This document shows positions 624 through 20,000 of a stretch of DNA of 20,000 bases, piece by piece. The DNA is from an uncultured virus (IMG/VR IMGVR_UViG_3300033143_002397) (lineage: Duplodnaviria; Heunggongvirae; Uroviricota; Caudoviricetes), in IMG/VR virus record IMGVR_UViG_3300033143_002397; one strand, 5' to 3'. Positions within the stretch are counted from its first letter, which is position 1; each line of letters starts with the position of its first letter. The notes under the pieces were generated by a model. That model worked only from the letters and a program-made list of their open reading frames with translations, was not told where the DNA came from and did not search any database. Both the position numbers and the translations under genes were made by a program.

Positions 624-634
624 CCCTTCTTCTC

Positions 635-641
635 TACACCG
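635..641 (-). promoter_or_regulatory. YGGTGTA box upstream of ligA (representative of 11 copies)
   Basis: Plus-strand TACACC(R) at 635, 1309, 8949, 10737, 11088, 12386, 13539, 13741, 14645, 15531 and 18607. Confidence 0.75.
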
Positions 642-665
642 GCGAAGGGATTGATCGGACAGCTT

Positions 666-1298: not shown

Positions 1299-1316
1299 GC
1301 CTCTGATCTACACCGG

Positions 1317-3496: not shown

Positions 3497-3507
3497 GGGG
3501 TTCTTCC

Positions 3508-4473: not shown

Positions 4474-4480
4474 ATTGACC

Positions 4481-5422
4481 TCAGTCAGAAAAGGCTGCGA
4501 GGAAGCAGGACTTGACGTGGAACGGGAGGATGATCTTTGCGTGAGCCCGCTCACGAACTCGACGAGACTCCTGCAACAGCGCTTCCAGCTTGGCCTCGCC
4601 TATCTGGGTCCGCAGGCCGTCGAGCTGGTCGACGACATCTACGTTGGTCAGACGGCTGGGGTCATGTGGGAGCATGAGAAGGTCGCGAAGGAGATGGTCC
4701 AAAAAACGAAGACCGCGATCCAGATCACTTTCAATTTCGTCGATAGTCGAAAACAGCGACGAAACATCCTGGGTGAGCCCAATTTTCAGCAAGCTCAACA
4801 CTTTGTTCCGCAGCGTAAGACGCCCAGAAGCGAGGTACTGATACGCCCTCCCCACTGAGCCCTCTGCAAGGCGACAACAGACAAGTGCTTTAGCGTCGTC
4901 GTCGGTATGCTCACGAAGAAAATCAACGATGAATTTCTCCGACAGCGGTCGATAGCGAACAACACCACACCGAGAGCGTATCGTGGGCAAAACCGAAGAG
5001 GCCGACTCGGTCAGCAGGAAAAAGCGTGACGTACGCGGGGGCTCTTCCAACGTCTTCAGCAGAACATTCGCCGCCGCGATGGTCATAGTGTCGGCGCCGT
5101 CGATCACGATATAACGAGAGGACACCATCGAGGGGAAGGACTGTGCCTGCTCAACGACAGCTCGCATGGCATCGACACCGATCTCCTTGTCATCCTCAGG
5201 ACGCACTACCACGAGGTCAGGATGCATACCCTTGGAGATCTGAACACAGTGGATGCTCTCGGGGTCACCCTTGGAGAAGGCTTCCTTCGCGGCCTCGATG
5301 ACCGAGAACCGTCGGCCAGTACCCTCGTCACCAACAAGCAGCAGCGGAGTCGTCAAACCCCCCTCGACGACCCGTCGGAGGAAGCGTACCCCCTCAGTCT
5401 GTCCTTGCACTGCGCTCAGCAT
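4481..5422 (-). CDS. holB: DNA polymerase III delta' subunit (clamp loader)
   Basis: Degenerate Walker A (LLVGDEGTGRR), HPDL, AANVLLKTLEEPP, LPTIRSRC (SRC arginine finger). The usual Cys4 zinc module is absent. Confidence 0.9.
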   Translation of the reverse strand: MLSAVQGQTEGVRFLRRVVEGGLTTPLLLVGDEGTGRRFSVIEAAKEAFSKGDPESIHCVQISKGMHPDLVVVRPEDDKEIGVDAMRAVVEQAQSFPSMVSSRYIVIDGADTMTIAAANVLLKTLEEPPRTSRFFLLTESASSVLPTIRSRCGVVRYRPLSEKFIVDFLREHTDDDAKALVCCRLAEGSVGRAYQYLASGRLTLRNKVLSLLKIGLTQDVSSLFSTIDEIESDLDRGLRFLDHLLRDLLMLPHDPSRLTNVDVVDQLDGLRTQIGEAKLEALLQESRRVRERAHAKIILPFHVKSCFLAAFSD

Positions 5423-5606: not shown

Positions 5607-6416
5607 CTAGTCCCCCTCGTTGATGAAAGCGTGGACGACGGCGTAAGGGTGTTCGTTTTGAAGATCACCCGAGTTGGCCAACAGGTTGTAGCCCGTCACA
5701 GACACTCGAACCCGTGGGCCAGACCAGCACATGAAGAAGTAGTCCGGCCCAGTGAACTTCGAGACAATCCGCTCGATGTAGTCGGGCGTGAAAACCTTGT
5801 AGAGCCACCAGGCTAGAGCCACGTTCATACCGTAGCCCCGAAGCTCCCACTTGGTCCGCCAGTAGGCTGGCCAGGGGATCGCGAAAAGCACCACCCCTAG
5901 AAGTACCAAGGCCCACCAACCCGTCAACCACCAGGCCAACACCCCGGTCCCCCCAAGCAGCAAAGGCAACACCACCCAGAAGAGGGCCTTGGTCAGCCGG
6001 GCTGCACCACAAGCCAGCACGTAGCTCACGAAAGGCAGCAGCGTGATCCACGAATAGGGCCAGGCCAAGACCGCGTAGGCCAACAGCGGCAACAGCACGA
6101 GGATCTGCGGGAACATGTAGGAGAGCTTGAACGTGAGCGGGTGCAGCTTGGAGTCCGAAAGGTGAACGAACTCGTGGGCCAGGATCCGGAAGCTCTTCTC
6201 GGGTGTTTCCTCGTAGAACTCCTGGTACGGGAAGAAGACCGTGTCACCCCAGGTCGTCGTGTACCGTTCCATGAAGTCCGAGTTGAAGGGGTACGACAGG
6301 AAGCCCAGCAGGGCCATGAGCTTGGACTCATCCTTGAACGCAACCTCGAACGAAGGGATCTCCCGACGGACGACCCCCTCGAAAGCTTTGAGGGCCTTGG
6401 CGTCCAAGGTCCTCAT
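5607..6416 (-). CDS. Membrane protein with zincin-like HExxH motif (putative metallopeptidase)
   Basis: ATG at 6416 overlaps the upstream stop (TGATG). ILAHEFVH is followed by ~4 hydrophobic segments, then WELRGY (candidate third-ligand Glu). Confidence 0.7.
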   Translation of the reverse strand: MRTLDAKALKAFEGVVRREIPSFEVAFKDESKLMALLGFLSYPFNSDFMERYTTTWGDTVFFPYQEFYEETPEKSFRILAHEFVHLSDSKLHPLTFKLSYMFPQILVLLPLLAYAVLAWPYSWITLLPFVSYVLACGAARLTKALFWVVLPLLLGGTGVLAWWLTGWWALVLLGVVLFAIPWPAYWRTKWELRGYGMNVALAWWLYKVFTPDYIERIVSKFTGPDYFFMCWSGPRVRVSVTGYNLLANSGDLQNEHPYAVVHAFINEGD

Positions 6417-6628
6417 CAGAAGCCGGCCCCGCCACCCACGTTGACGGGCATCGTCATACCGCACTCGATGCAACGGTAGACACGCAGGCCCCCAGCGCCC
6501 TCGATCTTGATCTCCGTCGCCGTGATCGAGGGGCAACCACTTCTACGGCACTTCATGTTGTGCAGGATCTCTTCAGGCTTGGCCTTGTTGGCCAACCCTG
6601 GGGTCGTTCCACTGGGATCAATCGGCAT
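6416..6628 (-). CDS. Small zinc-ribbon protein
   Basis: 70 aa with CRRSGC...YRCIECG. Confidence 0.7.
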   Translation of the reverse strand: MPIDPSGTTPGLANKAKPEEILHNMKCRRSGCPSITATEIKIEGAGGLRVYRCIECGMTMPVNVGGGAGF

Positions 6629-6636
6629 GAATCATC

Positions 6637-7023
6637 TCACAGGTCAGAGGTGGGGTACTCTTCGGGAAACAGCTCCTGAAGCGTGTGCAGAATCCGTTCG
6701 TACAGGCGAGGATCGTTCTGGTCGAGCATCACATCGCTGTAGGTCACAGGGGGATGCAGGTAGCCGAACTTCATCGAGGACGGGTTGAACAAGCTGATCG
6801 TGCCATCCTCGATCTTGGGCAAGATCAATGCCCAGTCCTCCTTGAGGATCACAGCATTCACGGTTGAGCCGAAGATACGGACGTAGCGAACATGCCCCCC
6901 AGCGGTGTACGTCCGAGCCTTGTACCGCAACATCGCCTGAATGGCCTTCGCCACGTTGGGGAGGTCTTGTTGACGCAGTCGGTGAGGACGGCTGCCGTTG
7001 ATATTGAAGAGACGAGTTTCCAC
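6637..7023 (-). CDS. Hypothetical protein
   Basis: 128-aa ORF with GTG start and purine-rich upstream sequence; tiles with its neighbours. Confidence 0.65.
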   Translation of the reverse strand: METRLFNINGSRPHRLRQQDLPNVAKAIQAMLRYKARTYTAGGHVRYVRIFGSTVNAVILKEDWALILPKIEDGTISLFNPSSMKFGYLHPPVTYSDVMLDQNDPRLYERILHTLQELFPEEYPTSDL

Positions 7024-7047
7024 CTCTCAAGCAACGGCACAAGTGGG

Positions 7048-7251
7048 TCAACGAACCAACGGCATCGTCACGCCGGGGGCGCCGGGGACGCCGACCCAGC
7101 CCTGAAGCACGACTTCCCTCAGCTTTTCGTCGAGCAGCCGGCTTGCAACCTCTTCCTTCGTCGAGCCGAACAAACCTTGCTCGACCAGCGTCCCGAGCAG
7201 ACGCCACACCTCGTCGCGAACATCCAGCTCGATTTTCGTCGTATCCGCCAC
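7048..7251 (-). CDS. Small putative ribbon-helix-helix DNA-binding protein
   Basis: 67 aa; an alternating strand (KIELDV) followed by LVEQGLFGSTKEEVASRLL, resembling CopG/ParD-type RHH proteins; starts 3 nt after the groEL stop. Confidence 0.55.
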   Translation of the reverse strand: MADTTKIELDVRDEVWRLLGTLVEQGLFGSTKEEVASRLLDEKLREVVLQGWVGVPGAPGVTMPLVR

Positions 7252-7254
7252 CGC

Positions 7255-9324
<2,070 letters not shown>

Positions 9325-9325
<1 letters not shown>

Positions 9326-10725
9326 TAATCGGTGCCCTTGAGGTTCGCCACAGGGTACAGCCGACGACTGACCTTCGCGATGTCCTCTGCCTCCAGCACA
9401 CCGAGAACCGCGTCGAGGTTCTTGTAGACGTGGGTGCATTCATCGAGCGGGACCTGTCGCGTGTTGCACAGAATGCCCTCGACCTCTGTCCCACCGAGGG
9501 TCCGCTTGACCTCCCGCATCTCGGAGTTGATCTCGTCCTGGCGCTCGGCCAAAGCCCTCTTGGCAGCCTTGCGGCCCATCGTCCGACCCGAGCCGTGGTT
9601 GACCGAGCAGGCCGTCTTGTGAGCCCCCTCCAACGGGAAGAGGATGGCGGCCCCGTCATACATCGAGCCCGGAATGAGGCACGGGTGTCCGGTGCTGGCC
9701 CACTTGGAGCCCACCAGGTCGGGGTGCCCAGCCGGCATAGCTCGCGTAGCACCCTTGCGGTGGACGAGGCCCTTCTTGGTCGAGCCGTCCGGCAGCACCA
9801 ACGTCTCCTGCTGGATGAGGTTGTGGCTGATCTCGTAGTAGACCTGACCCGCGGCCCCGTAGACCTTCTCGGTGGCCTCTCGCACACCTGCCGCGATCAC
9901 GTGGCGGTTGGCGATGGCGTAGTTGGCCGCCGCGTTGTGGCAGGCCCAGTATTGCTGCCCGACGGGCTCGTCCAGCCGGAGCCAGGAATCCCCGCGACGA
10001 TTCTTGGCCAACCCTCGCTGCTCGGCCCCAGCGTAGAAGAAGTGCTCAGCCGTCTGCCAGCCGTAGCCGCGGCTCCCACAGTGGACCATGGCGAAGACCT
10101 CACCCGTGACTTCATCAACCTGCATCTCGATGAAGTGGTTGCCGCCCCCGAGGCTACCCATCTGGGCCAAGACTTTGCCCTGAGCCCTCGGGATGGTGAC
10201 GAGGTGGTCGTCATTCACCGGGATGAAGAGCCGCTCACAGTAGTCCGCTGGGACACCCAGAGCCTGAGCGCCGTAGTGGAGGATGTCGTCGGCCTTCTTC
10301 TGGTCGAACGTCGGCATCAGCTTCGGGCGATTCGAGCCCACACCCAGAGCGACCCGCTGCTCGATCTCTTCGATCCACAACCGACGACGAGCCAGGTCTC
10401 GGATGTCGTCGGCCATCAGACCGGTCGACATGTAGAGCACACCACAGGAGATGTCGTAGCCCGAGCCCGCCTGAATGAGCGTGTCCTCGGTCACGATGAC
10501 GGAGCCGATGGGCACGCCGTAGCCCATGTGGGCGTCGGGCATGATGTAGGCCCCGGTCACGCCCTCATAGGAGGCACCGTTGCGGAGCTGGTCCCAGAGG
10601 GTCTCGTCCGATGCCGCGTACAGGTCCTCCGACAGGAAGGCGTGGGCATCGACCTTCATCTCCTTGGTCTTGGGCAGGACGTAGTGGTCGGTGCCCACCT
10701 TGGTTGCGGCGTATTTGAGAGACAT
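9325..10725 (-). CDS. rtcB: RNA 2',3'-cyclic phosphate/5'-OH ligase RtcB
   Basis: MPDAHMGYGVPIG, GYDISCG, GSLGGGNHF, VHCGSRG, SHN, VHRKGATRA, IPGSM, NHGSGR, YKN, and C-terminal LKG. Confidence 0.96.
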
Positions 10726-11095: not shown

Positions 11096-11869
11096 CTACT
11101 CGGGATCGCCGACCGCTTCACTGGCGATCAACTCGACCAGAGTCTCGACCGCCCGGTCCGCGTTGGCCTGGGAGACATACAGCTCACCGTGCCCGATGAC
11201 CTCGTAGTTGGCGGCCTTGAGCCGGAAGTACCATTGCTGGCCGTTACTGGCCTCCAGGACCTCGTAGCGCTCGGGGAGGCGGCCGTTGGTCCTCACAGAC
11301 TCGACGCCGTTCAGAGCCCCGCTACGGGCCACGTAACCCTCGCTCTGGAGCATGATCTCGCCGTTGGCGGCTCGCAGATGGAAGTAGAACTGATCGTCCT
11401 GGCCCTTGAACAGCTCGAAGTGTGCCCCACCGGTCTCCGCAGCCTCGACCTGAACGTTCTGGATGATGAGGCCCTGGACGGTCTCGCTACCCCGCTCAGC
11501 GTTGGACTTGCTCACGTAAGTCTCGCTGGTGCCGACGATCTCATGGTTCTGGGCTACCAGATTGAAGTACCACTCGACGTTGGCCGCTTCGAGCAAGTCA
11601 TAGTTGCCCAGGTCCACGCCGTTGGCCTTGACCGACTCGATGCCGTTCGCGGCTCCTGCGAGGCTGACGTACCCCTCGCTGTGCAGGACCTTCTGGCCGT
11701 TGGCTGCGAGCAGGTGAAAGTAGAACTGGCCATCAACGCCCTCGAAGGTCTCGAAGACCCCTGGACTCTCGGTGACATGCTGCTCATCGGTGACGATGTC
11801 ATCGCCAGAGCAACCGACGAGGGCGAACGAGAAGGCGAGAGCTAGCAGACAAAGCAGGCGTGACATCAT
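11096..11869 (-). CDS. Predicted lipoprotein with four DUF1508/YegP (UPF0339) repeats
   Basis: Start MMSRLL after AAGGAG; signal peptide ending in lipobox LVGC; four repeats of (F/W)YF.L.A.N.....SE.Y.S...A..G..SV. Confidence 0.85.
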   Translation of the reverse strand: MMSRLLCLLALAFSFALVGCSGDDIVTDEQHVTESPGVFETFEGVDGQFYFHLLAANGQKVLHSEGYVSLAGAANGIESVKANGVDLGNYDLLEAANVEWYFNLVAQNHEIVGTSETYVSKSNAERGSETVQGLIIQNVQVEAAETGGAHFELFKGQDDQFYFHLRAANGEIMLQSEGYVARSGALNGVESVRTNGRLPERYEVLEASNGQQWYFRLKAANYEVIGHGELYVSQANADRAVETLVELIASEAVGDPE

Positions 11870-11916
11870 GAGCTTCTCCTTGGAGGTTCCGGGGACGCGA
11901 GGGCACAAGAGCAACC

Positions 11917-12375
11917 TCAATCATCCTCCATGAGGCGTTCCCACTTGGAAAGCCTCGTGGGCTCGGGCTCGGGCTGCGCCGGACACCAAGTGTTCGTCGC
12001 GATCTTCTGCATTTCCCGCTTCGTCTGCGGTCCCAGGAAGTTGTCCACAGGCAAACCCAGGACCTTTTGAACCTGAGAAATCACGTCTCGTCGGTCGCCC
12101 TCCCGACACTTGTGGACCACGAGCTGCTGCTCGTACACCTCGATGAGCCAACACGCTTTCTGACGAAAGACACTAGGGACGAGCAGCTGGTCGCCTACAG
12201 CGGCAACTCGCTGGCTCGCTGGGACAAGAACGGTGAGCCCCTCGTCTTCGACCCAGGCAAAGACGAACTCCGGGTACAGCTCAGCCAACTCACCGACGAG
12301 AGCCTCAGGGTTAGCTCCGGTCAAGAGCTGCTGCACGAGCACCCCAGCTCGACGAGCCTTCTGAGCGATGGGCAT
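11917..12375 (-). CDS. Hypothetical protein with a peptidoglycan-binding-domain-like segment
   Basis: 152 aa. QVQKVLGLPVDNFLGPQT resembles the Q..LGL.vDG..Gp.T PG-binding signature (tentative). YGGTGTA box 10 nt upstream. Confidence 0.65.
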   Translation of the reverse strand: MPIAQKARRAGVLVQQLLTGANPEALVGELAELYPEFVFAWVEDEGLTVLVPASQRVAAVGDQLLVPSVFRQKACWLIEVYEQQLVVHKCREGDRRDVISQVQKVLGLPVDNFLGPQTKREMQKIATNTWCPAQPEPEPTRLSKWERLMEDD

Positions 12376-12424: not shown

Positions 12425-13021
12425 CTAGGCCGCCGTGATGAAGGGCGTCCACTCGTCGGGCACCTGCTCTGGATTGAGCCGTGGTCCGGCCAGGGGCAGC
12501 ACCTTCGGCCGCCTTGGAACGCTGAGCAACATCATCCCCGCCTGCTCCGGGGTCTTGTCAGCCTTCCGGCTGTTGCAAGCGGTGCAGGCCATGACGATGT
12601 TGGTCCAGGTCGTGGGCGTGGTGGACTTCTTCCACTGCGCCTTTGGGACAACGTGCTCATACTCCAGCTGGCTGAGGGGCAGCTTGACACCGCAGTATTG
12701 GCACGAGAAGTTGTCCCGCAGGGCGACGTTGATCTTGGAGAACTTGATCCCTGTCTTCACCCTGCTCACCTGCCGACGCAGAACTGCGACGGCCGGGACC
12801 TTGATGGTGATCGACTCAGCATCCGTCCCGATGACCTGACGCAACGCCCTCCGCAGCTCGGGGAACGTGATCAGGTGGTTGCGGCCGATGACTGTCAGGA
12901 TCTCGTCGTACTGGGCCAGGACCTCCAACTTGCCGTTGAACATCCTCGTCACAGCATCCTTCCAGTCAGTGACCTCGTGGGGTCTGTAGGCTTGGTTCAA
13001 GATCAAGGTCTGTGTCCACAT
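12425..13021 (-). CDS. HNH endonuclease (McrA-like, with LN..Y.P...W..A N-terminal domain)
   Basis: RDNFSCQYCG...EHVVPK...WTNIVMACTACNSRKADKTPEQAGM. Confidence 0.92.
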   Translation of the reverse strand: MWTQTLILNQAYRPHEVTDWKDAVTRMFNGKLEVLAQYDEILTVIGRNHLITFPELRRALRQVIGTDAESITIKVPAVAVLRRQVSRVKTGIKFSKINVALRDNFSCQYCGVKLPLSQLEYEHVVPKAQWKKSTTPTTWTNIVMACTACNSRKADKTPEQAGMMLLSVPRRPKVLPLAGPRLNPEQVPDEWTPFITAA

Positions 13022-13025
13022 GGCT

Positions 13026-13052
13026 TTACCTCAAGCGTTTCTTCTTCTTCAT
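13026..13052 (-). CDS. Putative Lys-rich leader peptide MKKKKRLR
   Basis: GAGGAacc-ATG AAG AAG AAG AAA CGC TTG AGG TAA, ending 4 nt before the HNH ATG. Confidence 0.5.
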   Translation of the reverse strand: MKKKKRLR

Positions 13053-13091
13053 GGTTCCTCTGACGCAGGGACCTCCCGCATCTGACAGGTA

Positions 13092-13133
13092 CAAAAGCAA
13101 GGCCCCCGGCCAGTTAGGTGACCAGGGGCCTTG
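13092..13133 (-). terminator. Intrinsic terminator downstream of tmRNA
   Basis: Minus-strand hairpin CAAGGCCCCUGGUCA/UGGCCGGGGGCCUUG followed by CUUUUG. Confidence 0.8.
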
Positions 13134-13137
13134 ATAG

Positions 13138-13484
13138 TGGAGACGCCGGGAATCGAACCCGGGTCCACGACGATTCCAGTCGTTCCTCGCTCACGTGCGT
13201 AGCCGCTCTACCCTCACGGCGGGGTCCCCAGTCTTCCCTGGGTGCCAGCTCCTGTAAATCTCGACTTTCCCTACTGAAGCGCTCGGGTCAGTCCAGCCCT
13301 AGTGGGTTGATGCCGGTGAGAGGACTACCAGGACGATCTCGTCCAACCGACAGCTCAGGCAGCGATGCCCAAAGCGGATGCGTTGTCGTTCGCAAATACG
13401 TGTTGCCCTGTTGATCGAGGCGGACTGGGCGCCGCCTGCACGTTCAGAATCACCTTCCTTGCCATGTCGAAGCCAATCGTCCCC
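13138..13484 (-). ncRNA. ssrA: tmRNA (one-piece); tag (A)ANDNASALGIAA at 13393-13355
   Basis: 5' GGGGACGAUUGGCUUCGAC pairs with 3' GGACCCGGGUUCGAUUCCCGGCGUCUCCA, including the G3.U70 Ala determinant. Internal reading frame GCG AAC GAC AAC ... GCU GCC UGA. CCA is not encoded (CUA follows). Confidence 0.96.
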
Positions 13485-13550
13485 AGAATGGGCCAGCACT
13501 GAGAAGACCCCGAAGGGACGGCTGACCCACTTGGACTATACACCAATCGG

Positions 13551-13632
13551 TACCCAGGGAGGGACTTGAACCCTCACACCACTAGGGCACGGGAGTTTGA
13601 ACCCCGCGTGTCTGCCATTCCACCACCTGGGC
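13551..13632 (-). tRNA. tRNA-Leu(CAA)
   Basis: GCCCAGG/CCUGGGU acceptor, loop UU-CAA-AC, long variable arm, UUCAAGU T-loop; no encoded CCA. Confidence 0.93.
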
Positions 13633-13633
13633 A

Positions 13634-13730
13634 AAAAGAAGGCCCGAGTGCCGTTGCTCCCTTCCGGGCCTGGCGGCATCGAGCCTAGGGCCGCCGAAGC
13701 GGCTCCACCACTGGGGGTCTAAGCCCCAGA
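13634..13730 (-). ncRNA. ffs: SRP RNA-like (4.5S) gene; domain IV hairpin at 13640-13686 plus two 5' hairpins
   Basis: UGCCG-CCAGG-CCC-GGAA-GGG-AGCAA-CGGCA gives a GGAA tetraloop and CAGG/AGCA symmetric loop, closed by AGGCUCGA/UCGGGCCU and followed by a U-tract. Transcript ends are approximate. Confidence 0.85.
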
Positions 13731-13748
13731 TCACGTACTATACACCGG

Positions 13749-13822
13749 TGGAACCCCAGGGGTTCGAACCCTGAACAACCCGGTTATGAGCCGGGGGCTC
13801 TGACCACTTGAGCTAGAGTTCC
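13749..13822 (-). tRNA. tRNA with CAU anticodon, probably Ile2 (lysidine type); Met not excluded
   Basis: GGAACUC/GGGUUCC acceptor; CCCGG-CU-CAU-AA-CCGGG anticodon arm; no encoded CCA. Confidence 0.85.
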
Positions 13823-13823
13823 G

Positions 13824-13910
13824 TGGTAGCCCCTCCCGGCCTCGAACCGAGATGTCTCGAAGGACCGCGGGTTTTAAGCCCACTGCGTCTACCAATTCCG
13901 CCAAGGGGCC
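13824..13910 (-). tRNA. tRNA-Leu(TAA)
   Basis: GUGGG-CU-UAA-AA-CCCGC, long variable arm, CCA encoded. Confidence 0.93.
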
Positions 13911-13911
13911 G

Positions 13912-13951
13912 TGTTGTGAAACAAGGTTGTTGTGAAACAAGGTTGTTTCAC
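13912..13951. repeat. 16-bp tandem repeat (TGTTGTGAAACAAGGT x2) overlapping a 9-bp inverted repeat (GTGAAACAA-gg-TTGTTTCAC)
   Basis: Read directly: copies at 13912-13927 and 13928-13943; palindrome at 13932-13951. Confidence 0.85.
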
Positions 13952-13952
13952 G

Positions 13953-14027
13953 TGGTGGGAGGAACAGGGATCGAACCTGCGACCATCGGCTTGTAAGGCC
14001 GGCGCTCTACCACTGAGCTACCCTCCC
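13953..14027 (-). tRNA. tRNA-Val(TAC)
   Basis: Loop CU-UAC-AA; GGGAGGG/UCCUCCC acceptor; CCA encoded. Confidence 0.93.
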
Positions 14028-14032
14028 GAAGT

Positions 14033-14329
14033 CTACCAGCGACGCTCTTGCTGGACTAGCCGCCCGAAGAGCTTCCGCAGAGGCTTGATCCCCATGACGA
14101 CGAAGCCTTCTTGGAGGCCGGCGAACTCGCCTCCAGCTCGGGAGATGTAGGTCACCCGAGCCATGAGCCAACGCCGCGTGTAACGGCCTCGCTGGGGGTC
14201 GTATTCCTGGAGCTTGAGCCGGTCACCCACCTCAAAGCCCCGGTCGTCCTTCCGAAGCTCGTAACGCTTGAGGCCGGCTGCGATAGCATTGAAGCCGCTG
14301 GGCCAGGTCTTCAGCTCGTGCTCCTTCAT
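14033..14329 (-). CDS. ASCH/PUA-like protein (DUF3850-like)
   Basis: HELKTWP..F..I..G.K.YELRKDDRGFEVGD.L.L.E pattern. Confidence 0.85.
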   Translation of the reverse strand: MKEHELKTWPSGFNAIAAGLKRYELRKDDRGFEVGDRLKLQEYDPQRGRYTRRWLMARVTYISRAGGEFAGLQEGFVVMGIKPLRKLFGRLVQQERRW

Positions 14330-14634
14330 CTGTACTTCCCTCGCTTCTGCTGGTCCTTGGGACGCTCAATGTTGAGCCTCTTGCTAGGGTCCTGCTTGGC
14401 GATCCAGCGGATCATCTGCCGGAAGCGGTCATCAGCCATGAGGGCCTTGACCGTGCTGTACGTCGTCGCCAGCTCCTTGTTGGAGAAGAAGGCGTGGATA
14501 GCCCGATGACACGAGAGGCAGGAGTCCACCATGACCTCTCCCCCTTTGCCGCCACGACTCCGAGGCACCAGGTGGTGCCGCTTGAGGTGGACTGCGGGTC
14601 TCTTGCAGAAGGGACATGTCGGAAGCTCGACCAT
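14326..14634 (-). CDS. Small HNH endonuclease (YisB-like)
   Basis: CPFCKR...HHLVPRSRGG...CLSCHRAIHAFFSNKELA...WI; YGGTGTA box 10 nt upstream. Confidence 0.85.
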   Translation of the reverse strand: MVELPTCPFCKRPAVHLKRHHLVPRSRGGKGGEVMVDSCLSCHRAIHAFFSNKELATTYSTVKALMADDRFRQMIRWIAKQDPSKRLNIERPKDQQKRGKYR

Positions 14635-14660
14635 AGAAGTCTACTACACCACGAAGAAGT

Positions 14661-14999
14661 CAACGGGTTGTAAGCCGGGTCCTGTCAAGGATGATCATTC
14701 ATCTAGGAGTCGCGTTGCCACGACCCTCAAGCAGCCTACCCGGAAGCGTTGGGCGAGCGACCCCCTTCCTGTCTGGCCTTGCTTCAGATGGGTGCGCCGT
14801 GCCATCCCTGTTGCCAGGAACGCGGTGGGCTCTTACCCCACCCTTTCACCCTTACCCTGTGGCCGAAGCGACAGGGCGGTTTGCTTTCTGCTGCGTTTTC
14901 CTCGGGGTCACCCCCGACCGGGCGTTACCCGGCATCCTGCTCTGTGAAGCCCGGACTTTCCTCCCGCAGCCGAAGCTGCCGGCGATCATCTGCTCCCGT
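14661..14999 (-). ncRNA. rnpB: RNase P RNA, bacterial type A
   Basis: GAGGAAAGUCCGGGC (P4 5'), GGUAACGCC, AGAAAGCAAACCGCC, GGGUGAAAGGGUGGGGUAAGAGCCCACC, AGCAAGGCCA, GGGUAGGCUGCUUGAG (L15 GGU), UAGAUGAAUGAUC, and ACAGGACCCGGCUUA (P4 3'); P1 is CAACGGG/CCCGUUG. Confidence 0.96.
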
Positions 15000-15085
<86 letters not shown>

Positions 15086-15086
15086 G

Positions 15087-15518
15087 TCATCGACACAACC
15101 GCTTAGACATCTTGATGGCCGCCTTGCTCACCTCATCGTCCTTCCAGGAGATGGTGTTGCCATCCTTGTCCTTCACGGGGTTCTGAATCTGGTTGTGATA
15201 GTCCCAGCCCATCCAGAAGCACCAGAGCCAAAAGACACCCACGTCGAGGTGCTTTTGCACCAGCAAAGGCCAGCCCTTGGAGCGCTCCTTGCCCTGGCCG
15301 TAGACCTCCGTCTTACCGTTGTAGGTGAAGCTCGACTTGCCGTAGCCCATCTGAAGAAGCACGGCACCGGTGGCGCCACACCCCCTGGGCAAGCTCTTGT
15401 CTTCGCCCAAGCCTGACCAGTCGAACAAGCAGCCCCCGCGAACGATCTGGATGCCTTGAGCCCGAGCTTGCTCGATGGCGTGCTCGATGGCCTTGAAGGC
15501 GTGCTGCTTTTTGACCAT
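15087..15518 (-). CDS. Hypothetical protein
   Basis: 143-aa ORF filling the gap between two tRNAs; YGGTGTA box 12 nt upstream. Confidence 0.75.
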   Translation of the reverse strand: MVKKQHAFKAIEHAIEQARAQGIQIVRGGCLFDWSGLGEDKSLPRGCGATGAVLLQMGYGKSSFTYNGKTEVYGQGKERSKGWPLLVQKHLDVGVFWLWCFWMGWDYHNQIQNPVKDKDGNTISWKDDEVSKAAIKMSKRLCR

Positions 15519-15539
15519 GCACCTTGTTGGTACACCGGT

Positions 15540-15614
15540 TGGCTGGGGCGGCAGGGTTCGAACCTGCGACGACCGGGTTCAAAGCCCGGCATTCTGCCAC
15601 TGAATTACACCCCA
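15540..15614 (-). tRNA. tRNA-Gln(TTG)
   Basis: U1-A72, G73; CCGGG-CU-UUG-AA-CCCGG; CCA encoded. Confidence 0.93.
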
Positions 15615-15620
15615 AAATAG

Positions 15621-15692
15621 TCACTGGAGCCGGGATCGAACCGGCGACGCCCGCCGTATGAGAGCGGCGCTCTGCCTCTGAGCTACCCAGCG
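15621..15692 (-). tRNA. tRNA-Met(CAT), probably elongator
   Basis: Loop CU-CAU-AC; 1-72 is paired and the anticodon stem lacks the GGG/CCC run, so it is not an initiator; no encoded CCA. Confidence 0.85.
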
Positions 15693-15734
15693 TTCTGCGG
15701 AATGCTCTTTTAGTCCGCCTAGTTCGAGAACCAC

Positions 15735-16685
15735 GTGAAGACTCCCATCGCGAAAATTGAAGTAGGCTCTTCGACAGCCCTGAGCATCCTGTTGGTCGAG
15801 GACAACCCGACCGACCGAGAGCTGCTGCGCTACCTCCTTGAGGCTCGCCTTCACCCCTCGTCCCAGTTCTTTGAGGCGTCCAACCTCCAGGCGGCATTCC
15901 TTCACCTGGAACAGAACAACATCGACTGCGTGTTGCTCGACCTACGCTTGCCTGACTCAGCCGGCAAGGAAACGTTCGAGAAGCTCGCCGAGCTGTACCC
16001 CACGATCCCCATCATCGTCGTGACCCACACGAAGGATCGCGAGCTGGCCATCGAGATGATCAAGGCTGGCGCCGCTGACTACCTACTGAAGAGCTACACG
16101 GACGAGGACGCCATCTTCCAACGGATCATGCTCGCTGTCACCCGACACAAGCAGAACGTCCGGGTGTCACCCGATCAGGCTGGCATCTTCCAACGGCTCG
16201 ACAAGGCCCAGGCCAGCATCACAACCGCTCGACGACGACAGAGCCAAACAGAGCTTCAGGCCGCATCAGCAGACACAAACCACGCTATGGCCGACGTGTC
16301 CCGCCAGCTCTTCACCGATGTTCAGAGCCTCAAGCAGGTACTAGGTGAGCAGGCTGTCCGGCAAGAGCACATGCTGGACAGCGTGAAGATCTTGAACACG
16401 GAACTGCTTCACGGCCGCTCTGGGCGCCCATCCATGAAATCGCAGATGAACCTACTCGACCACCGCATGACAGCCGTAGAGGTCGGCGTGGGTAAGATGA
16501 AGCAGGATGCTGACGAGGCCGGGGACACCCAGCGAAGGGAAGCCCTCCAGCTCACAACAGCGAGGTGGAGCAACCGCACAAAGATCCTCGTCGCTGTCTT
16601 GGCTCTCGTGGGGGTCATCTCCACCGCAGCCGCCACCTACTTCGCGACCACCCACAAGCCCCCGGCAGCAGGAGCCCCGAAGTGA
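15735..16685 (+). CDS. Response regulator: receiver domain, helical/coiled-coil region, C-terminal transmembrane helix
   Basis: ILLVEDN, VLLDLRLPD (phospho-Asp), IIVVT, GAADYLLK; C-terminal ILVAVLALVGVISTAAATYFA. Confidence 0.88.
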   Translation: MKTPIAKIEVGSSTALSILLVEDNPTDRELLRYLLEARLHPSSQFFEASNLQAAFLHLEQNNIDCVLLDLRLPDSAGKETFEKLAELYPTIPIIVVTHTKDRELAIEMIKAGAADYLLKSYTDEDAIFQRIMLAVTRHKQNVRVSPDQAGIFQRLDKAQASITTARRRQSQTELQAASADTNHAMADVSRQLFTDVQSLKQVLGEQAVRQEHMLDSVKILNTELLHGRSGRPSMKSQMNLLDHRMTAVEVGVGKMKQDADEAGDTQRREALQLTTARWSNRTKILVAVLALVGVISTAAATYFATTHKPPAAGAPK

Positions 16686-17758
16686 CAAGCTCTGAGCACG
16701 AACGAGCCAGAGGCGAAGCCATCCTGGCCGCCATCCCCGACATCATCTTCGAGGTCGACAGCGAAGGGCGCTTCCTGTTCGTACACGCCCGACCGGGCCA
16801 GACCTTCGTCGAGAACGGCAAGATCATCGGCAAGCTCGTGACCGAGCTACTGCCCGAAACGGTTGCCTCTCAATGCGTGGACTGCATCACTGAGGTCCTC
16901 CGAACCCAAGAGGTCCAGACCCTCGACTACACGCTCCCCTACCCCAAAGGCGAGAGGTACTTTCGAGCACATCTGGGACCATCAGCCAAGGGCACTGTCG
17001 TGGCTGTCGTACGCAACGTCACGTCGGACAAGTGCCACCGGAGCAGGCTTGAACATCAGACCGAGCAGCTCCTAGAGGCCAACGAGAGCCTGGAGCAGTT
17101 CGTCCACGTAGCCTCACATGACCTACGTGAACCTCTCACCGGCATCGCTGGGTTCGCCACCCTTCTCCGCAAGCGCTACGGCGACGAGCTAGACGACAGC
17201 GGCCAGCACTTCCTGAACGAGATCATCGCTGGGACCAAGAGGATGGAGCAGAAGATCGAAGACCTCCTGGCCCTATCCCGAGCTGGGCGTGGGACACCCA
17301 ACGGTCCCTTTTCTCTGGGCTCAGCTATCGAGGAAGCTCGTCGTAGCCTCGTCAGGGCCTTCAAAGAATCGGGGGCAGTCCTCCAAACAAGCGAGCTACC
17401 CACGGTCCGAGGGGACCGCAGCATGATCGCCCAGGTCTTCCAGAACCTCTTCAGCAACAGCATCAAGTATCACCCGGAAGGAGTGAAGCCAGTCATCGAG
17501 ATCGAGGTCCTACCCGACTCAGACCCCAAGATGGTCCACGTCGCGGTCACCGACAACGGTATTGGATTCTGCATGGACCACGCTGACCGGATCTTCGGGA
17601 TCTTCCAGCGGCTCTACACGATAGAGCAGTACCCAGGGACGGGCATCGGACTCGCCATCGCCAAGAAGATCGTCGAGAAGCAAGGAGGTCGTATCTGGGC
17701 CTCTTCGGAGCCCTCGAAAGGGTCCACGTTTCACTTCACCTTGCAGAAGGCCACGTAA
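16682..17758 (+). CDS. Cytoplasmic PAS-domain sensor histidine kinase (Cph1/bacteriophytochrome-type kinase core)
   Basis: GTG start overlapping the upstream stop (GTGA). PAS (ILAAIPDIIFEVDSEGRF), H-box ASHDLREPL, N-box FQNLFSNSIKY, G1 DNGIG, F-box IFGIFQRL, G2 GTGIGLA. Confidence 0.93.
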   Translation: MTSSEHERARGEAILAAIPDIIFEVDSEGRFLFVHARPGQTFVENGKIIGKLVTELLPETVASQCVDCITEVLRTQEVQTLDYTLPYPKGERYFRAHLGPSAKGTVVAVVRNVTSDKCHRSRLEHQTEQLLEANESLEQFVHVASHDLREPLTGIAGFATLLRKRYGDELDDSGQHFLNEIIAGTKRMEQKIEDLLALSRAGRGTPNGPFSLGSAIEEARRSLVRAFKESGAVLQTSELPTVRGDRSMIAQVFQNLFSNSIKYHPEGVKPVIEIEVLPDSDPKMVHVAVTDNGIGFCMDHADRIFGIFQRLYTIEQYPGTGIGLAIAKKIVEKQGGRIWASSEPSKGSTFHFTLQKAT

Positions 17759-18282
17759 TGCCTAACGAAAAAGTCAGCGTCCTCTTGGTCGAGGACAGCC
17801 GCACCGACGCAGAACTCATCGCCGAGGCGCTCAAAGACTCAAAGCTGCCTCATCGACTAGACCTGGCCACCGACGGAATCGCGGCCCTGAAGTACCTCGC
17901 GGACAACGACCGGCCACACCTCATCCTGCTCGACCTCAACCTCCCCAAAAAGTCGGGGTTGGAGGTCCTTCGAGAGATCAAGCAAGACACCGACCTCTGC
18001 ATCATTCCCGTCGTCATCCTGACCAACTCCGAGTCCAAGAAGGATGTGACCCAGTGCTACGAGAGCTTCTGCACGACCTACATCCGCAAGCCGTTGCACT
18101 TCGAGGACTGGGTAGCCACCCTCAACTGCCTGTCGCACTTCCTGTTTCGAGTAGCGACACTCCCCCATGAATCCCCGCTGCTCAAGCGACGAGGTTGCCT
18201 CGTGAGTGCCTGGGTCGAGCCCAGGTCGTCAAGGCGGCCCCCTCCCAAAAAGAAGCGGGCCAAGAAGCGGGCCAAGAAGTAG
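17758..18282 (+). CDS. Single-domain response regulator (Rcp1-like) with basic C-terminal tail
   Basis: VLLVEDS, LILLDLNLPKKSGLEVL, IPVVILT, YIRKP; TAATG coupling to the kinase. Confidence 0.92.
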   Translation: MPNEKVSVLLVEDSRTDAELIAEALKDSKLPHRLDLATDGIAALKYLADNDRPHLILLDLNLPKKSGLEVLREIKQDTDLCIIPVVILTNSESKKDVTQCYESFCTTYIRKPLHFEDWVATLNCLSHFLFRVATLPHESPLLKRRGCLVSAWVEPRSSRRPPPKKKRAKKRAKK

Positions 18283-18356
18283 CCTCCCCGAGAAGATTCG
18301 AACTTCTGACCTCTTGCTTCGGAGGCAAGCGCTCTATCCAGCTGAGCTACGGGGAG
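18283..18356 (-). tRNA. tRNA-Arg(CCG)
   Basis: CUUGC-CU-CCG-AA-GCAAG; D-loop GGAUA (A20); no encoded CCA. Confidence 0.93.
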
Positions 18357-18361
18357 ATCGT

Positions 18362-18595
18362 CTAAGGCCGGGCCGCCATCTTGCGACGAGTTTCCTCGGA
18401 GGGATTCTCATCCGGTAGAGCTGGCCAGCCGTGGTCATCGACGTGCAGCTTCATGGCCTTGGCTGACGCTCGCCACTTCAGCCGAATACCGTCGTGAAGC
18501 TCGTCCCACGGAGTCACAGGAGGGTCACACCGAGTGGCGTAAGCAGCGTAGCCGACACGAGCGAGGTCCATGAAGGGGTCGTTGCTGTAGGGCAT
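18362..18595 (-). CDS. Hypothetical protein
   Basis: 77 aa, MPYSNDPFMDLARVGYAAY...PWDEL....RLKW; this ATG lies 11 nt after a YGGTGTA box (alternative ATG at 18607). Confidence 0.65.
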   Translation of the reverse strand: MPYSNDPFMDLARVGYAAYATRCDPPVTPWDELHDGIRLKWRASAKAMKLHVDDHGWPALPDENPSEETRRKMAARP

Positions 18596-18616
18596 GAGCC
18601 TCTTCATACACCAGGG

Positions 18617-18689
18617 CCTCCCTGGCTGGAATCGAACCAGCGACCTCGTGGTCCGCAACCACGCGCTCTATCCGCTGAGCTACAGAGAG
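18617..18689 (-). tRNA. tRNA-Arg(GCG)
   Basis: CGUGG-UU-GCG-GA-CCACG; A20 present; no encoded CCA. Confidence 0.92.
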
Positions 18690-18694
18690 ATGGG

Positions 18695-18748
18695 CTTGTC
18701 TAAAAGGGCCGACTTGACCTGTTGATCAAGCAGGACCTTTTAAACAAG
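18695..18748 (-). repeat. 23-bp imperfect inverted repeat forming a long hairpin between two tRNA-Arg genes
   Basis: CTTGTCTAAAAGGGCCGACTTGA-N8-TCAAGCAGGACCTTTTAAACAAG; two of the four mismatches become G.U pairs on the minus strand. Confidence 0.8.
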
Positions 18749-18749
18749 T

Positions 18750-18825
18750 TGGCACCCACGGAGGGAGTCGAACCCCCAACCGACGGCTTCGAAGGCCGCT
18801 GCGCTATCCATTGTGCTACGTGGGC
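18750..18825 (-). tRNA. tRNA-Arg(TCG)
   Basis: GCGGC-CU-UCG-AA-GCCGU; CCA encoded. Confidence 0.93.
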
Positions 18826-18828
18826 ATG

Positions 18829-18905
18829 TGGCGTCCCCAGCCGGACTCGAACCGGCGTTTGCTGATCGAGAGTCAGCGATCCTGGGCCAGCTAGATGATG
18901 GGGAC
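18829..18905 (-). tRNA. tRNA-Glu(CTC)
   Basis: GUCCCCA/UGGGGAC acceptor; GCUGA-CU-CUC-GA-UCAGC; CCA encoded. Confidence 0.92.
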
Positions 18906-18934
18906 TTGACTTAGGGTGTAGGTCCGTGTAGGGT
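18906..18934 (+). promoter_or_regulatory. Candidate sigma70-type promoter TTGACT-N17-TAGGGT
   Basis: -35 at 18906-18911 and -10 at 18929-18934, upstream of ORF 18963. Confidence 0.5.
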
Positions 18935-18957
18935 TGGGTGTAGGTCCGTGTAGGGTT
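18914..18957 (+). repeat. Perfect 22-bp tandem repeat (GGGTGTAGGTCCGTGTAGGGTT x2)
   Basis: Read directly: 18914-18935 and 18936-18957. Confidence 0.9.
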
Positions 18958-18962
18958 ATGTC

Positions 18963-19130
18963 ATGAAAGGTACTACATCAGATTGGTTCAAAACACTCAC
19001 CCTGCGAGCGATGAAAGACCTCGTGTGCTTGCTGTTTGACCTCGACGGCAAGGCCCGAGGCCACCGGCACTACGAGCTGTTCAAAGAGCTGCGGTTACGC
19101 CTCGACGACGAGTACCACGGGCTCAAGTGA
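18963..19130 (+). CDS. Small hypothetical protein (55 aa)
   Basis: Below the ORF-track cutoff: MKGTTSDWFKTLTLRAMKDLVCLLFDLDGKARGHRHYELFKELRLRLDDEYHGLK; its stop abuts the tRNA-Arg(TCT) 3' end. Confidence 0.55.
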   Translation: MKGTTSDWFKTLTLRAMKDLVCLLFDLDGKARGHRHYELFKELRLRLDDEYHGLK

Positions 19131-19205
19131 TGGCACCCTCGGTAGGATTCGAACCTACGCTCTGCGGTTTAGAAGACCGCCGCCTTTCCGCTTGGCTACG
19201 AGGGC
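19131..19205 (-). tRNA. tRNA-Arg(TCT)
   Basis: GCGGU-CU-UCU-AA-ACCGC; CCA encoded. Confidence 0.93.
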
Positions 19206-19369
19206 ACACCGCCGCCCGGCCAGGCGACGGGATCTTCAGTAGGAGCCCCATGGAGAGGTCAGAGCCCTTTCCTTCCGGCCCCCACTCCTTCTCTCAGGGG
19301 ACCAGCAGCACCCGCAGGCTTAAAGGCCCCGGTGTGACGGCGATGACCGCCAGGGCCGCTAGGCCCCAG
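19206..19369 (-). ncRNA. Candidate unassigned structured RNA between tRNA-Cys and tRNA-Arg
   Basis: At least four G.U-containing stems that form preferentially on the minus strand; no credible ORF; see findings. Confidence 0.5.
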
Positions 19370-19441
19370 AGGCGTGGGCGGGGATCGAACCCGCGTATGG
19401 TGGTGTTGCAGACCACTGCCTTTCCGCTTGGCTACCACGCC
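19370..19441 (-). tRNA. tRNA-Cys(GCA)
   Basis: GUGGU-CU-GCA-AC-ACCAC; U73 discriminator; no encoded CCA. Confidence 0.93.
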
Positions 19442-19468
19442 AGGATGTTTCGATGAGGGGCCTAGGAC

Positions 19469-19738
19469 ATGGACATGGTCACACGAGTGGTGCGACGCTT
19501 CATGGCTTTCAAGTACGTGCCGAAAGAGAAGAAGAAGGCGAAGGTGGACCGCCTCACGAAGGTCATCCGAGAGAAGACCGGCGTGAGCCGTGGGACCGCC
19601 GAGGACATCGCCGACGCCATCGTGCGAAACCGCGATGTCGAACGCCTGGCACGCCAAAAGAGCTGGCCCATCGAGGACGGAACCATCGAAGGGCCGAAGG
19701 GCCAGATCACGATCAAGGCTATACGGGACCAGCTGTGA
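19469..19738 (+). CDS. Hypothetical basic protein
   Basis: 89-aa ORF coupled (GTGA) to the next gene. Confidence 0.7.
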   Translation: MDMVTRVVRRFMAFKYVPKEKKKAKVDRLTKVIREKTGVSRGTAEDIADAIVRNRDVERLARQKSWPIEDGTIEGPKGQITIKAIRDQL

Positions 19739-20000
19739 GGATCCTGATCGTCGAGGACAACCCCGCCGACCGCGAACTACTCGTCTTCACGCTCCAAGAG
19801 CACTTCAAGACTGAGGCCAAGTTCCGCGAAGCATACGACCTGGAGGGAGCCCACAGCTACCTCCAGCGAGGTGGGGTTGACGCTGTCGTCCTCGACCTCC
19901 AGCTACCAGACAGCTCGGGCCTCGATACCTTCACGAGGATCCACAAGGCGTACCCTCATCTGCCCATCATCGTTGTGACCCACAACATCGACCTGGACCT
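19735..20000 (+). CDS. Response regulator receiver domain (runs off the right end); paralogue of 15735-16685
   Basis: Manual translation from GTG 19735: MRILIVEDNPADRELL...VDAVVLDLQLPDSSGLDTF...YPHLPIIVVTHN. Confidence 0.9.
   Translation, partial: MRILIVEDNPADRELLVFTLQEHFKTEAKFREAYDLEGAHSYLQRGGVDAVVLDLQLPDSSGLDTFTRIHKAYPHLPIIVVTHNIDLD

Follow-up and report, generated by a model that had tools for sequence, protein, structure and literature searches.

A full-size RNase P RNA abutting a tRNA, with a tmRNA and a mini hairpin of probable SRP origin in a putative huge-phage RNA island

The stretch of uncultured-virus DNA considered here (20,000 nucleotides (nt) of IMG/VR record IMGVR_UViG_3300033143_002397, Caudoviricetes; hereafter, the window) carries a full-size gene for the RNA subunit of ribonuclease P (RNase P, rnpB-like), which starts inside the CCA end of a tRNA gene and shares its strand with further tRNA genes (13 in all), a transfer-messenger RNA (tmRNA) gene and a 47-nt hairpin resembling a part of the RNA of the signal recognition particle (SRP). 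The interpretation favoured, with some reserve, is that of a co-transcribed huge-phage island in which the RNase P ribozyme is encoded together with its substrates and which would rely on host proteins for its function.

The RNase P RNA and its island

Rfam (at gathering thresholds), ARAGORN, Pfam, PHROGs and NCBIfam were applied to the window. Rfam and ARAGORN are concordant on the same 13 tRNAs and the tmRNA, all on the minus strand, and with Pfam they bear out the initial annotation in its description of a 13-tRNA island with ssrA, rnpB and HNH genes on one strand, and of an rtcB gene ~2.4 kb from ssrA (2410 nt by the Pfam RtcB match). That annotation had also proposed a trio of stable RNAs, of which the RNase P RNA and the tmRNA stand over their gathering cut-offs, while the SRP RNA is reduced to a sub-threshold hairpin resembling SRP domain IV. 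The elements of the island, all on the minus strand and given in the direction of that strand, are:

18282-19441: six tRNAs, Cys(gca), Arg(tct), Glu(ctc), Arg(tcg), Arg(gcg) and Arg(ccg) (Rfam, ARAGORN)
15620-15692: tRNA-Met(cat) (Rfam, ARAGORN)
15540-15614: tRNA-Gln(ttg) (Rfam, ARAGORN)
15087-15518: orphan open reading frame (ORF) of 143 aa, ORF143, preceded by GGTGTA, upstream of tRNA-Leu(tag) and the RNase P RNA
15000-15085: tRNA-Leu(tag), abutting the RNase P RNA (Rfam, ARAGORN), with an orthologue in the related record G001
14657-15001: RNase P RNA, class A, rnpB-like, 345 nt (Rfam RF00010)
14326-14634: small stand-alone HNH nuclease gene, 102 aa (Pfam HNH, 21.4 bits)
14033-14329: DUF3850 gene (PHROG name 'RNA-binding protein'), the conserved flank of the insertion site
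13953-14027: tRNA-Val(tac) (Rfam, ARAGORN)
13824-13910: tRNA-Leu(taa) (Rfam, ARAGORN)
13747-13822: tRNA-Met(cat) (Rfam, ARAGORN)
13687-13746: 5' portion of a putative SRP-like transcript, with the motif GGTGTATAGT and two small hairpins
13640-13686: SRP domain-IV-like mini hairpin, 47 nt (relaxed Rfam searches, folding, alignment)
13549-13632: tRNA-Leu(caa) (Rfam, ARAGORN)
13135-13484: one-piece tmRNA (ssrA), tag ANDNASALGIAA followed by a stop, CCA not encoded (Rfam, ARAGORN)
13098-13133: terminator-like hairpin, 15 pairs then CTTTTG, directly after the tmRNA

The CCA end is encoded by 7 of the 13 tRNAs; the remaining six, like the tmRNA, lack it. A side observation within the island is a unit of ~16 nt (AACCTTGTTTCACAAC), present twice as a tandem direct repeat at about 13911-13950 (minus strand), between tRNA-Val and tRNA-Leu(taa).

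The RNase P RNA matches RNaseP_bact_a with 265.3 bits (cut-off 100) and covers the model fully (positions 1-367). The blocks of conserved regions I and V (CR-I and CR-V; GAGGAAAGUCCGGGCU and ACAGGACCCGGCUUA), which form the core of helix P4, match the RF00010 consensus, and helices P1-P18 are present, including the specificity-domain hairpins. Across 17 viral-contig copies (that of the window and 16 others), compensatory changes are seen in 40 of the 49 pairs of the RNAalifold model, which is built without pseudoknots, and the CR-V block, which played no part in the search motif, is kept in 17/17. The P13/P14 region is missing from some of these copies, that of the window being full-size. Thus, full model coverage and a structure conserved among viral-contig copies are features in common with bacterial class A RNase P RNA, from which the window copy differs in lying within a phage-type island, in starting inside a tRNA CCA end, in the lack of rnpA in 25 large phage records and in sequence, the closest bacterial copies examined being ~78-83% identical.

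The P13-P14 variant of the window was found at 42 loci in species-representative bacterial genomes, mostly of Alphaproteobacteria (Hyphomonadaceae, Caulobacteraceae, Rhizobiaceae and Rhodobacteraceae), a distribution that hints at an alphaproteobacterial source or host. Recent capture from the compared bacterial species is excluded, the best full-length identity among these 42 loci, a sample biased by their being picked for this very variant, being about 78-83% over 170-270 nt. Among phage copies, that of G006/G007 comes nearest to the window RNA, with 82% identity over 168 nt. Two copies of the P13-P14 motif (L187 and L197) lie 6 kb apart on one contig (178,692 bp) of a Longimicrobiales metagenome-assembled genome; two such close rnpB-like genes would be odd for a bacterium, and the contig may hold a phage or prophage.

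The position of the RNase P RNA can be defined to the nucleotide by comparison with G001, a 372-kb IMG/VR contig. There, GTGGTGTATCTTAGGGTC comes after the CCA end of tRNA-Leu(tag) and leads up to the DUF3850 ATG. In the window, what comes after the same end of the orthologous tRNA is, in turn, the 345-nt RNase P RNA, CTTC and GTGGTGTAGTAGACTTCT, the HNH ATG and, finally, DUF3850 (54% identical to the G001 protein, E 5e-32), so that the RNase P RNA sits exactly between tRNA-Leu(tag) and the HNH gene at 14326-14634, itself absent from the equivalent G001 position. As judged from this alignment, two adjacent indels (rnpB and HNH) part orthologous flanks. Gain of rnpB in the window lineage is the simpler reading because it is absent from the three nearest relatives, the direction of the change not being proven. 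The closest relative that does carry an RNase P RNA (G009) has it at another location and with just 70% identity to the window copy, which points to its having been acquired separately or moved. The idea that rnpB generally travels by HNH homing was considered and rejected, an HNH neighbour being found at 0/10 other phage loci. The HNH protein at 14326-14634 gives an HlpB-like NCBIfam match of 81 bits, under the cut-off of 130, and is on this basis closer in type to HlpB, a small stand-alone HNH protein, than to a classical homing enzyme.

The tmRNA

The tmRNA (RF00023) scores 113 bits (cut-off 47) over model positions 1-374 and includes the tRNA-like domain, the third acceptor-stem pair being G-U in our reading of the Rfam alignment. 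The tag predicted by ARAGORN, ANDNASALGIAA, has a hydrophobic ..AA end before the stop; those of relatives read ANDNSAMPVAA and ANDNGVAQARAA, each followed by a stop. No gene for the partner protein SmpB (PF01668) was found in the window or in 25 phage records and, therefore, host SmpB would be needed.

The SRP-like mini hairpin

No SRP family reaches its gathering score in the window. Relaxed searches returned Archaea_SRP with 29.6 bits (model positions 192-221, E 5.7e-4 over 7.1 kb) and Bacteria_small_SRP (RF00169) with 31.5 bits against a cut-off of 40 (13634-13689), the latter as a gapped end-to-end alignment with large deletions. The hairpin at 13640-13686 has a stem of 12 pairs, with one bulge, together with a 5x5 symmetric internal loop and a GGAA tetraloop; it is followed by a U-run (UUCUUUUU) and lies 8 nt 5' of tRNA-Leu(caa). 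The whole 114-nt gap between tRNA-Met and tRNA-Leu(caa) folds as two small hairpins plus this one, with an unremarkable overall fold energy (z = -1.2).

The GGAA tetraloop and the symmetric loop of domain IV match the consensus and all 27 aligned SRP cores, and the stem beside these conserved loops covaries (27 structured cases), with 91% of cells paired compared with 66% after shuffling and a score that 0/500 shuffles reach. Furthermore, the 26-nt core of the window element (stem, symmetric loop and GGAA tetraloop) is identical to that of loci L094 and L101, both over the SRP threshold. The asymmetric-loop signature GUGAAC...UAAG, present in every full-length copy, is missing in the window and in eight other mini hairpins. 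In the light of the shared core, the lacking signature and the sub-threshold score, the window element is, on its sequence features, derived from SRP RNA, not a full SRP RNA, and in its truncated form it may not be a working one. Thus, with the bacterial small SRP RNA (4.5S, RF00169) it shares the 26-nt domain IV core and the covarying stem, but it is only 47 nt long, lacks the asymmetric loop and the distal stem, and is followed by the U-run and a nearby tRNA.

An IMG/VR scan for the core CAGGNCCGGAAGGNAGCA gave 45 loci, some of them in coding sequence without a closing stem and, by appearance, chance matches. Mini hairpins placed like that of the window, i.e. in tRNA islands and on the tRNA strand, are found in three further records:

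window: 31.5 bits, 8 nt upstream of tRNA-Leu(caa), 165 nt from the tmRNA
G020: 28.5 bits, 20 nt upstream of tRNA-Arg, 1.9 kb from a tmRNA
G024: 28.8 bits, 20 nt upstream of tRNA-Phe, 1.2 kb from a tmRNA
G021: 22.6 bits, 60 nt upstream of tRNA-Ser

In an island with a full SRP RNA (L157, in G019; 290 kb, 32% guanine plus cytosine (GC)), ARAGORN also places at 550-624 an amber-suppressor tRNA (anticodon CTA, label Pyl), and this phage may read TAG as a sense codon.

Relatives of the window

With the GroEL of the window as query, 16 IMG/VR loci were retrieved. The closest relatives are contigs of 155-452 kb with the same order of ligase, ribonucleotide reductase, clamp loader, GroEL, tmRNA and tRNA genes:

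G001: 372 kb, GroEL 70% identical
G002: 155 kb, GroEL 62% identical
G003: 452 kb, GroEL 60% identical
G009: GroEL 57% identical; closest relative with RNase P RNA; 51 tRNAs and a tmRNA in 54 kb
G004: 412 kb, direct terminal repeats, GroEL 50% identical; whole record without RNase P RNA

In G001, G002 and G003 the tmRNA and tRNAs lie directly upstream of GroEL, and the tRNA order Cys, Arg ... Gln, Leu(tag) ... Leu(taa), Met, Leu(caa), tmRNA is common to G001 and the window. Where the window has tRNA-Val, G001 has a tRNA-like gene (L001, 6937-7026) with an anticodon that ARAGORN leaves undetermined and a sub-threshold, tRNA-Sec-like Rfam match of 34.9 bits. In two other records, G007 and G006 (L071 and L072), the GroEL-like frame contains one in-frame TGA, which may represent a recoded stop, a break or two genes.

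When the 80 longest ORFs of the whole G001 record were scanned against PHROGs, a large terminase (phrog_2, 80 bits), a portal protein (phrog_16240, 86 bits) and a head maturation protease were identified, besides a DNA polymerase, helicases and a UvsX-like recombinase; the ligase, ribonucleotide reductase, clamp loader, GroEL and histidine kinase are shared with the window, and 47/80 ORFs have no PHROG family. No 16S rRNA was found in any of five relatives (0/5), as the initial annotation would have it for a phage. Its notion of a phage-like element thus finds support in the gene order common to the 155-452 kb relatives and in the terminase, portal and head protease of G001, which is indirect in that it comes by way of the relatives. 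On the strength of the gene order of these records, the structural genes of G001 and the lack of 16S, we take the window to belong, in all likelihood, to a huge phage. Among GenBank phages, the sole near match is a tRNA, 82% identical, in two Mycobacterium phages; an exact 40-mer of the window had no match in IMG/VR or among metagenome contigs.

Recurrence in large phage contigs without the protein partners

The exact CR-I motif occurs at 41 IMG/VR loci, 13 of which are on contigs of 100-497 kb. Rfam was applied to 20 of the 41, including all 13 on large contigs, and 20/20 proved to be full-model RNase P RNAs of 156-334 bits. With 41 loci for this motif and 45 for the SRP core among 2.9 million viral contigs, both RNAs are indeed rare in phages, as had been surmised, and, though rare, they recur in large phage contigs. 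Several short contigs bear the RNase P RNA at the contig end, and one group of them matches bacterial-looking records of phage collections; these end copies are probably host flanks. The neighbourhood of the RNase P RNA in the large phage records is as follows:

G014, G018: Thr(ggt), RNase P RNA, Gly(gcc); 0 nt upstream
G017, G008: Leu(cag), RNase P RNA, Arg(tcg); 0-1 nt upstream
G013, G011: Cys, RNase P RNA, Gly(tcc); 6 nt on each side
G009: Trp, RNase P RNA; 0 nt
G012: Gln, RNase P RNA, Val; 71 and 106 nt
G010, G006, G016: no tRNA within 3 kb

Thus, at 7/11 loci the upstream tRNA lies 0-6 nt from the RNase P RNA, in five tRNA contexts and at 34-68% GC, and the window conforms to this arrangement. 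An RtcB or RNA ligase gene adjoins the RNase P RNA in G014 and G010, RtcB being placed in G014 inside the tRNA array. Direct terminal repeats are present in two of the records with RNase P RNA (G008 and G012).

The survey of RNAs and their partner proteins comprised 25 records, of which 13 carry RNase P RNA, 7 carry the SRP motif and 5 are relatives by GroEL:

RNase P RNA over cut-off: 13/25 records, 7 of them at least 90% complete
tmRNA: 11/25
SRP RNA over cut-off: 6/25
SRP-like below cut-off: 3/25 (G020, G024, G021)
RnpA (PF00825): 0/25; controls, 10/14 genomes
Ffh M domain (PF02978): 0/25; controls, 14/14 genomes
SmpB (PF01668): 0/25; controls, 10/14 genomes

Four records (G008, G009, G010 and G016) combine RNase P RNA with tmRNA, and two (G006 and G007, apparently one phage type) combine it with full SRP RNA. 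All three RNAs are found together in 0/25 records, and in the window if the sub-threshold hairpin is counted. No rnpA was found among the 25 ORFs of the window (Pfam). The initial annotation had spoken of a replacement kit for the stable-RNA arm of translation: the RNAs present fit such a notion, the SRP part is truncated and, with no partner proteins in the 25 records, any kit would be made of RNA only and depend on host proteins.

Two further loci came up in these searches. In G005 (L017; 172 kb, direct terminal repeats), a 246-nt weak full-span RNase P match of 30.5 bits is seen at 126743-126988, ~200 nt from a run of tRNAs. 'Microcystis phage MaAM05' (L158, GenBank MW495066.1, 112323-118472) contains an unannotated RNase P RNA of 251.8 bits; it was rejected as a cultured example, the copy being flanked by fabI, engB and mtgA, which look bacterial.

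Transcription units and a possible mechanism

Starting from the RNAs themselves, their structural conservation and arrangement, their recurrence in large phage contigs and the lack of partner proteins there, we infer how the island may be transcribed and processed, how it may use host proteins and what benefit it may bring. The hexamer GGTGTA occurs 20 times in the window (4.3 expected; 0/200 shuffles reach 20), 15 times on the gene strand, with minus-strand sites that include 635, 1309, 10737, 11088, 12386, 13539, 13741, 14645 and 15531. It is found 9-12 nt before the ATG of seven genes and 50 nt before the tmRNA, it opens the SRP-like region, and it is enriched also on the gene strand of G009 (30 compared with 10.8 expected). 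Most likely, it is a clade-specific promoter or gene-start signal; a sigma-70 promoter scan gave 0 sites in 12900-15800. Its placement suggests four short transcription units, each headed by the motif, which would consist of: (i) ORF143, tRNA-Leu(tag) and the RNase P RNA; (ii) HNH, DUF3850, tRNA-Val, tRNA-Leu(taa) and tRNA-Met; (iii) the SRP-like RNA, with its U-run, and tRNA-Leu(caa); and (iv) the tmRNA, then the 15-pair terminator-like hairpin.

Bacterial RNase P processes precursor tRNAs and also the precursors of 4.5S RNA and tmRNA. The island would, then, bring the ribozyme together with its own substrates, i.e. tRNAs, tmRNA and a 4.5S-like hairpin. The first nucleotides of the RNase P RNA belong to the CCA end of the tRNA before it, so that its release would fall to the tRNA 3'-end processing machinery; as to the two bases shared by both RNAs, either one of the products would be repaired or a shorter P1 would be tolerated. 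Since no protein partner is found in the 25 large phage records, RnpA and SmpB of the host would serve as partners of the phage RNAs, and Ffh possibly as that of the mini hairpin. The phage would flood the cell with its own tRNA precursors (dozens of tRNAs), and the benefit would probably lie in keeping 5' maturation of tRNAs and rescue of ribosomes going as the synthesis or integrity of host RNA falls off.

Several observations weigh against this interpretation. With respect to the RNase P RNA, the whole records of G001-G003 contain none, so that rnpB is dispensable in the clade; the first two bases of helix P1 are shared with the CCA of tRNA-Leu(tag), which implies that tRNA and RNase P RNA cannot both be fully mature from one precursor without repair; and the surveys rest on exact motifs, 21 of the 41 CR-I loci lying outside the Rfam check. 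The mini hairpin is below the SRP cut-off, without asymmetric loop and distal stem, and an Rfam scan in E-value mode of the hairpins of G020, G024 and G021 gave no SRP match at E <= 0.01. As to the phage nature of the DNA, the 20-kb window has no terminase, portal or capsid-maturation gene, the evidence coming from relatives, most of which were missed by the Pfam terminase and tail-sheath models (Terminase_6N matched G008 alone, Terminase_6C 0/8 records, and Phage_sheath_1 gave one weak match); the G008 terminase protein has no homologue in five relatives, and G009, G018 and G019 carry the IMG/VR label 'provirus'. Finally, a search of sequencing runs returned 8 DNA runs, with a word share of at most 0.07, and no RNA run.

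Among the other ways to account for the island, the one that fares best, though it is considered unlikely, is that the RNAs are defence-proof spares, which replace host tRNAs, tmRNA and RNase P RNA lost to RNase defences or host shut-off, with RtcB resealing what has been cut. The RtcB gene 2.4 kb from ssrA and the RtcB or RNA ligase genes by the RNase P RNA of G014 and G010 are in keeping with this, as is the tie between phage tRNAs and the RtcB and Rnl ligases that repair cleaved tRNAs, which is drawn in the available text of a recent review (PMC7824862). An RNase P RNA ~78-83% identical to the closest bacterial copies examined would, moreover, differ from any likely host copy. However, the nearest relatives lack rnpB and no nuclease threat can be identified from the window. 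No host defence is known to be directed at RNase P RNA or SRP RNA, nor did the literature searched bring one to light.

That the RNAs, above all the mini SRP hairpin, are decoys which tie up host Ffh, SmpB or RnpA is distinctly less plausible. RNA subunits encoded alone, never with the proteins (0/25 records), would suit such a role, and so would a hairpin that keeps the tetraloop and the symmetric loop, has lost the asymmetric loop and the distal stem and has similar counterparts in the tRNA islands of G020, G024 and G021. On the other hand, both the RNase P RNA and the tmRNA have their full length and keep their functional signatures intact, which is beyond what a decoy needs, and structural work indicates that loss of the asymmetric loop of SRP RNA may weaken Ffh binding.

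It is improbable, too, that rnpB is a passenger, gained by tRNA-array recombination or along with an HNH gene and kept without benefit. The patchy distribution (absent in G001-G003, in another position in G009) and the precise indel beside an HNH gene, between orthologous flanks, would be expected of a passenger, but not a full-length, high-scoring RNA with compensatory evolution across phage copies, which recurs in at least five tRNA contexts and in phage records of 34-68% GC; besides, the other ten loci have no HNH neighbour and the HNH protein of the window is more HlpB-like than a homing enzyme. These three alternatives are not separated by the present data.

The last one, namely that the DNA is not phage at all but bacterial chromosome (e.g. 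host DNA beside a prophage at ssrA, tmRNA genes being classical prophage integration sites) or a chimeric assembly, might appeal to the many short IMG/VR contigs with RNase P RNA at their end, one group of which matches bacterial-looking records, to the 'provirus' flag of G009 and to the MaAM05 copy among fabI, engB and mtgA, but can hardly be entertained in view of the gene order common with 372-452 kb phage contigs having terminase and portal, of 13 tRNAs with HNH genes in 6 kb of the window, of relatives without 16S, rnpA and smpB, and of the terminal-repeat records G008 and G012 that carry RNase P RNA.

A bolder generalization may be put forward, which is rather doubtful at this stage: huge phages would systematically encode the RNA subunits alone of RNase P, tmRNA-SmpB and SRP, as tRNA-like cistrons released by RNase P, and take the host proteins by subunit swapping, while the mini SRP hairpin would represent a new class of small phage RNAs engaging or blocking host Ffh.

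Other genes of the window

Outside the island proper, the following genes were assigned:

3-5422, minus: replication block with a partial NAD-dependent DNA ligase, an orphan ORF, class II ribonucleotide reductase and clamp-loader delta and delta', in a gene order identical in G001
7255-8979, minus: GroEL-type chaperonin, the query for relatives (Pfam, PHROGs)
9325-10725, minus: RtcB RNA ligase (Pfam 289.7 bits; phrog_1075), 2410 nt from ssrA
12425-13021, minus: HNH endonuclease gene, 198 aa, downstream of the tmRNA (Pfam, PHROGs)
15735-18282, plus: two-component cassette of response regulator, PAS histidine kinase and response regulator (Pfam, PHROGs, NCBIfam)
19453-19998, plus: a further regulator

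The two-component cassette, which the initial annotation did not mention, lies on the opposite strand and splits the tRNA blocks; a histidine kinase is found also in G001 (L136, 11267-12418). Between RtcB and the tmRNA, a protein of four DUF1508 repeats is encoded at 11096-11920 (minus strand; 207 bits). The orphan ORFs at 15087-15518, 11917-12375, 8918-9439, 6644-7258 and 5607-6536 match no Pfam, PHROG or NCBIfam family, and that at 666-1298 gives only a weak, sub-threshold match to the Lar family (TIGR03655, 19.6 compared with 39.6 bits).

Relation to known systems and significance

That tRNA arrays, tmRNA and RtcB are present in huge phages is already known (PMC7162821, PMC7824862, as far as the accessible text of each goes). 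The translation islands of Al-Shayeb et al. 2020 (PMC7162821) resemble the present one in their large tRNA arrays and tmRNA, in phages of more than 200 kb, but the main text of that work includes tmRNA and SmpB with 0 occurrences of RNase P or SRP RNA, and SmpB is absent from the records surveyed here (0/25). The phage RNA-repair modules reviewed by Iyer et al. 2021 (PMC7824862) have their like in the RtcB gene by the tRNA/tmRNA island of the window and in that within the G014 array, whereas RNase P, tmRNA and SRP go without mention in the available text of the review. According to the text available from PMC8172020, a full Rfam scan of two megaphages gave only tRNAs and one tmRNA, and the lack of other RNAs was taken to indicate that two circles of 0.5 Mb were of non-cellular nature. 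No description of phage-encoded RNase P RNA or SRP RNA was found in the freely accessible main texts that were searched, and neither RNA is mentioned in two recent jumbo-phage papers. New in the present analysis are, then: (i) the full-size RNase P RNA copy with a precise insertion junction relative to a close relative; (ii) its co-occurrence with tmRNA and a mini SRP hairpin; (iii) the RNA-only pattern across 25 records; and (iv) mini domain IV hairpins, as a class, within tRNA islands.

For the annotation of viral contigs, RNA genes of this type can make phage sequences seem bacterial or provirus-like. The RNA-only pattern leads to a directly testable idea, namely that an RNA subunit of phage origin works together with a protein subunit of the host. 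RNase P RNA is seen as a housekeeping ribozyme of cells only, and a full-size, conserved copy fused to giant-phage tRNAs would extend the viral take-over of translation to tRNA maturation and, perhaps, to protein targeting.

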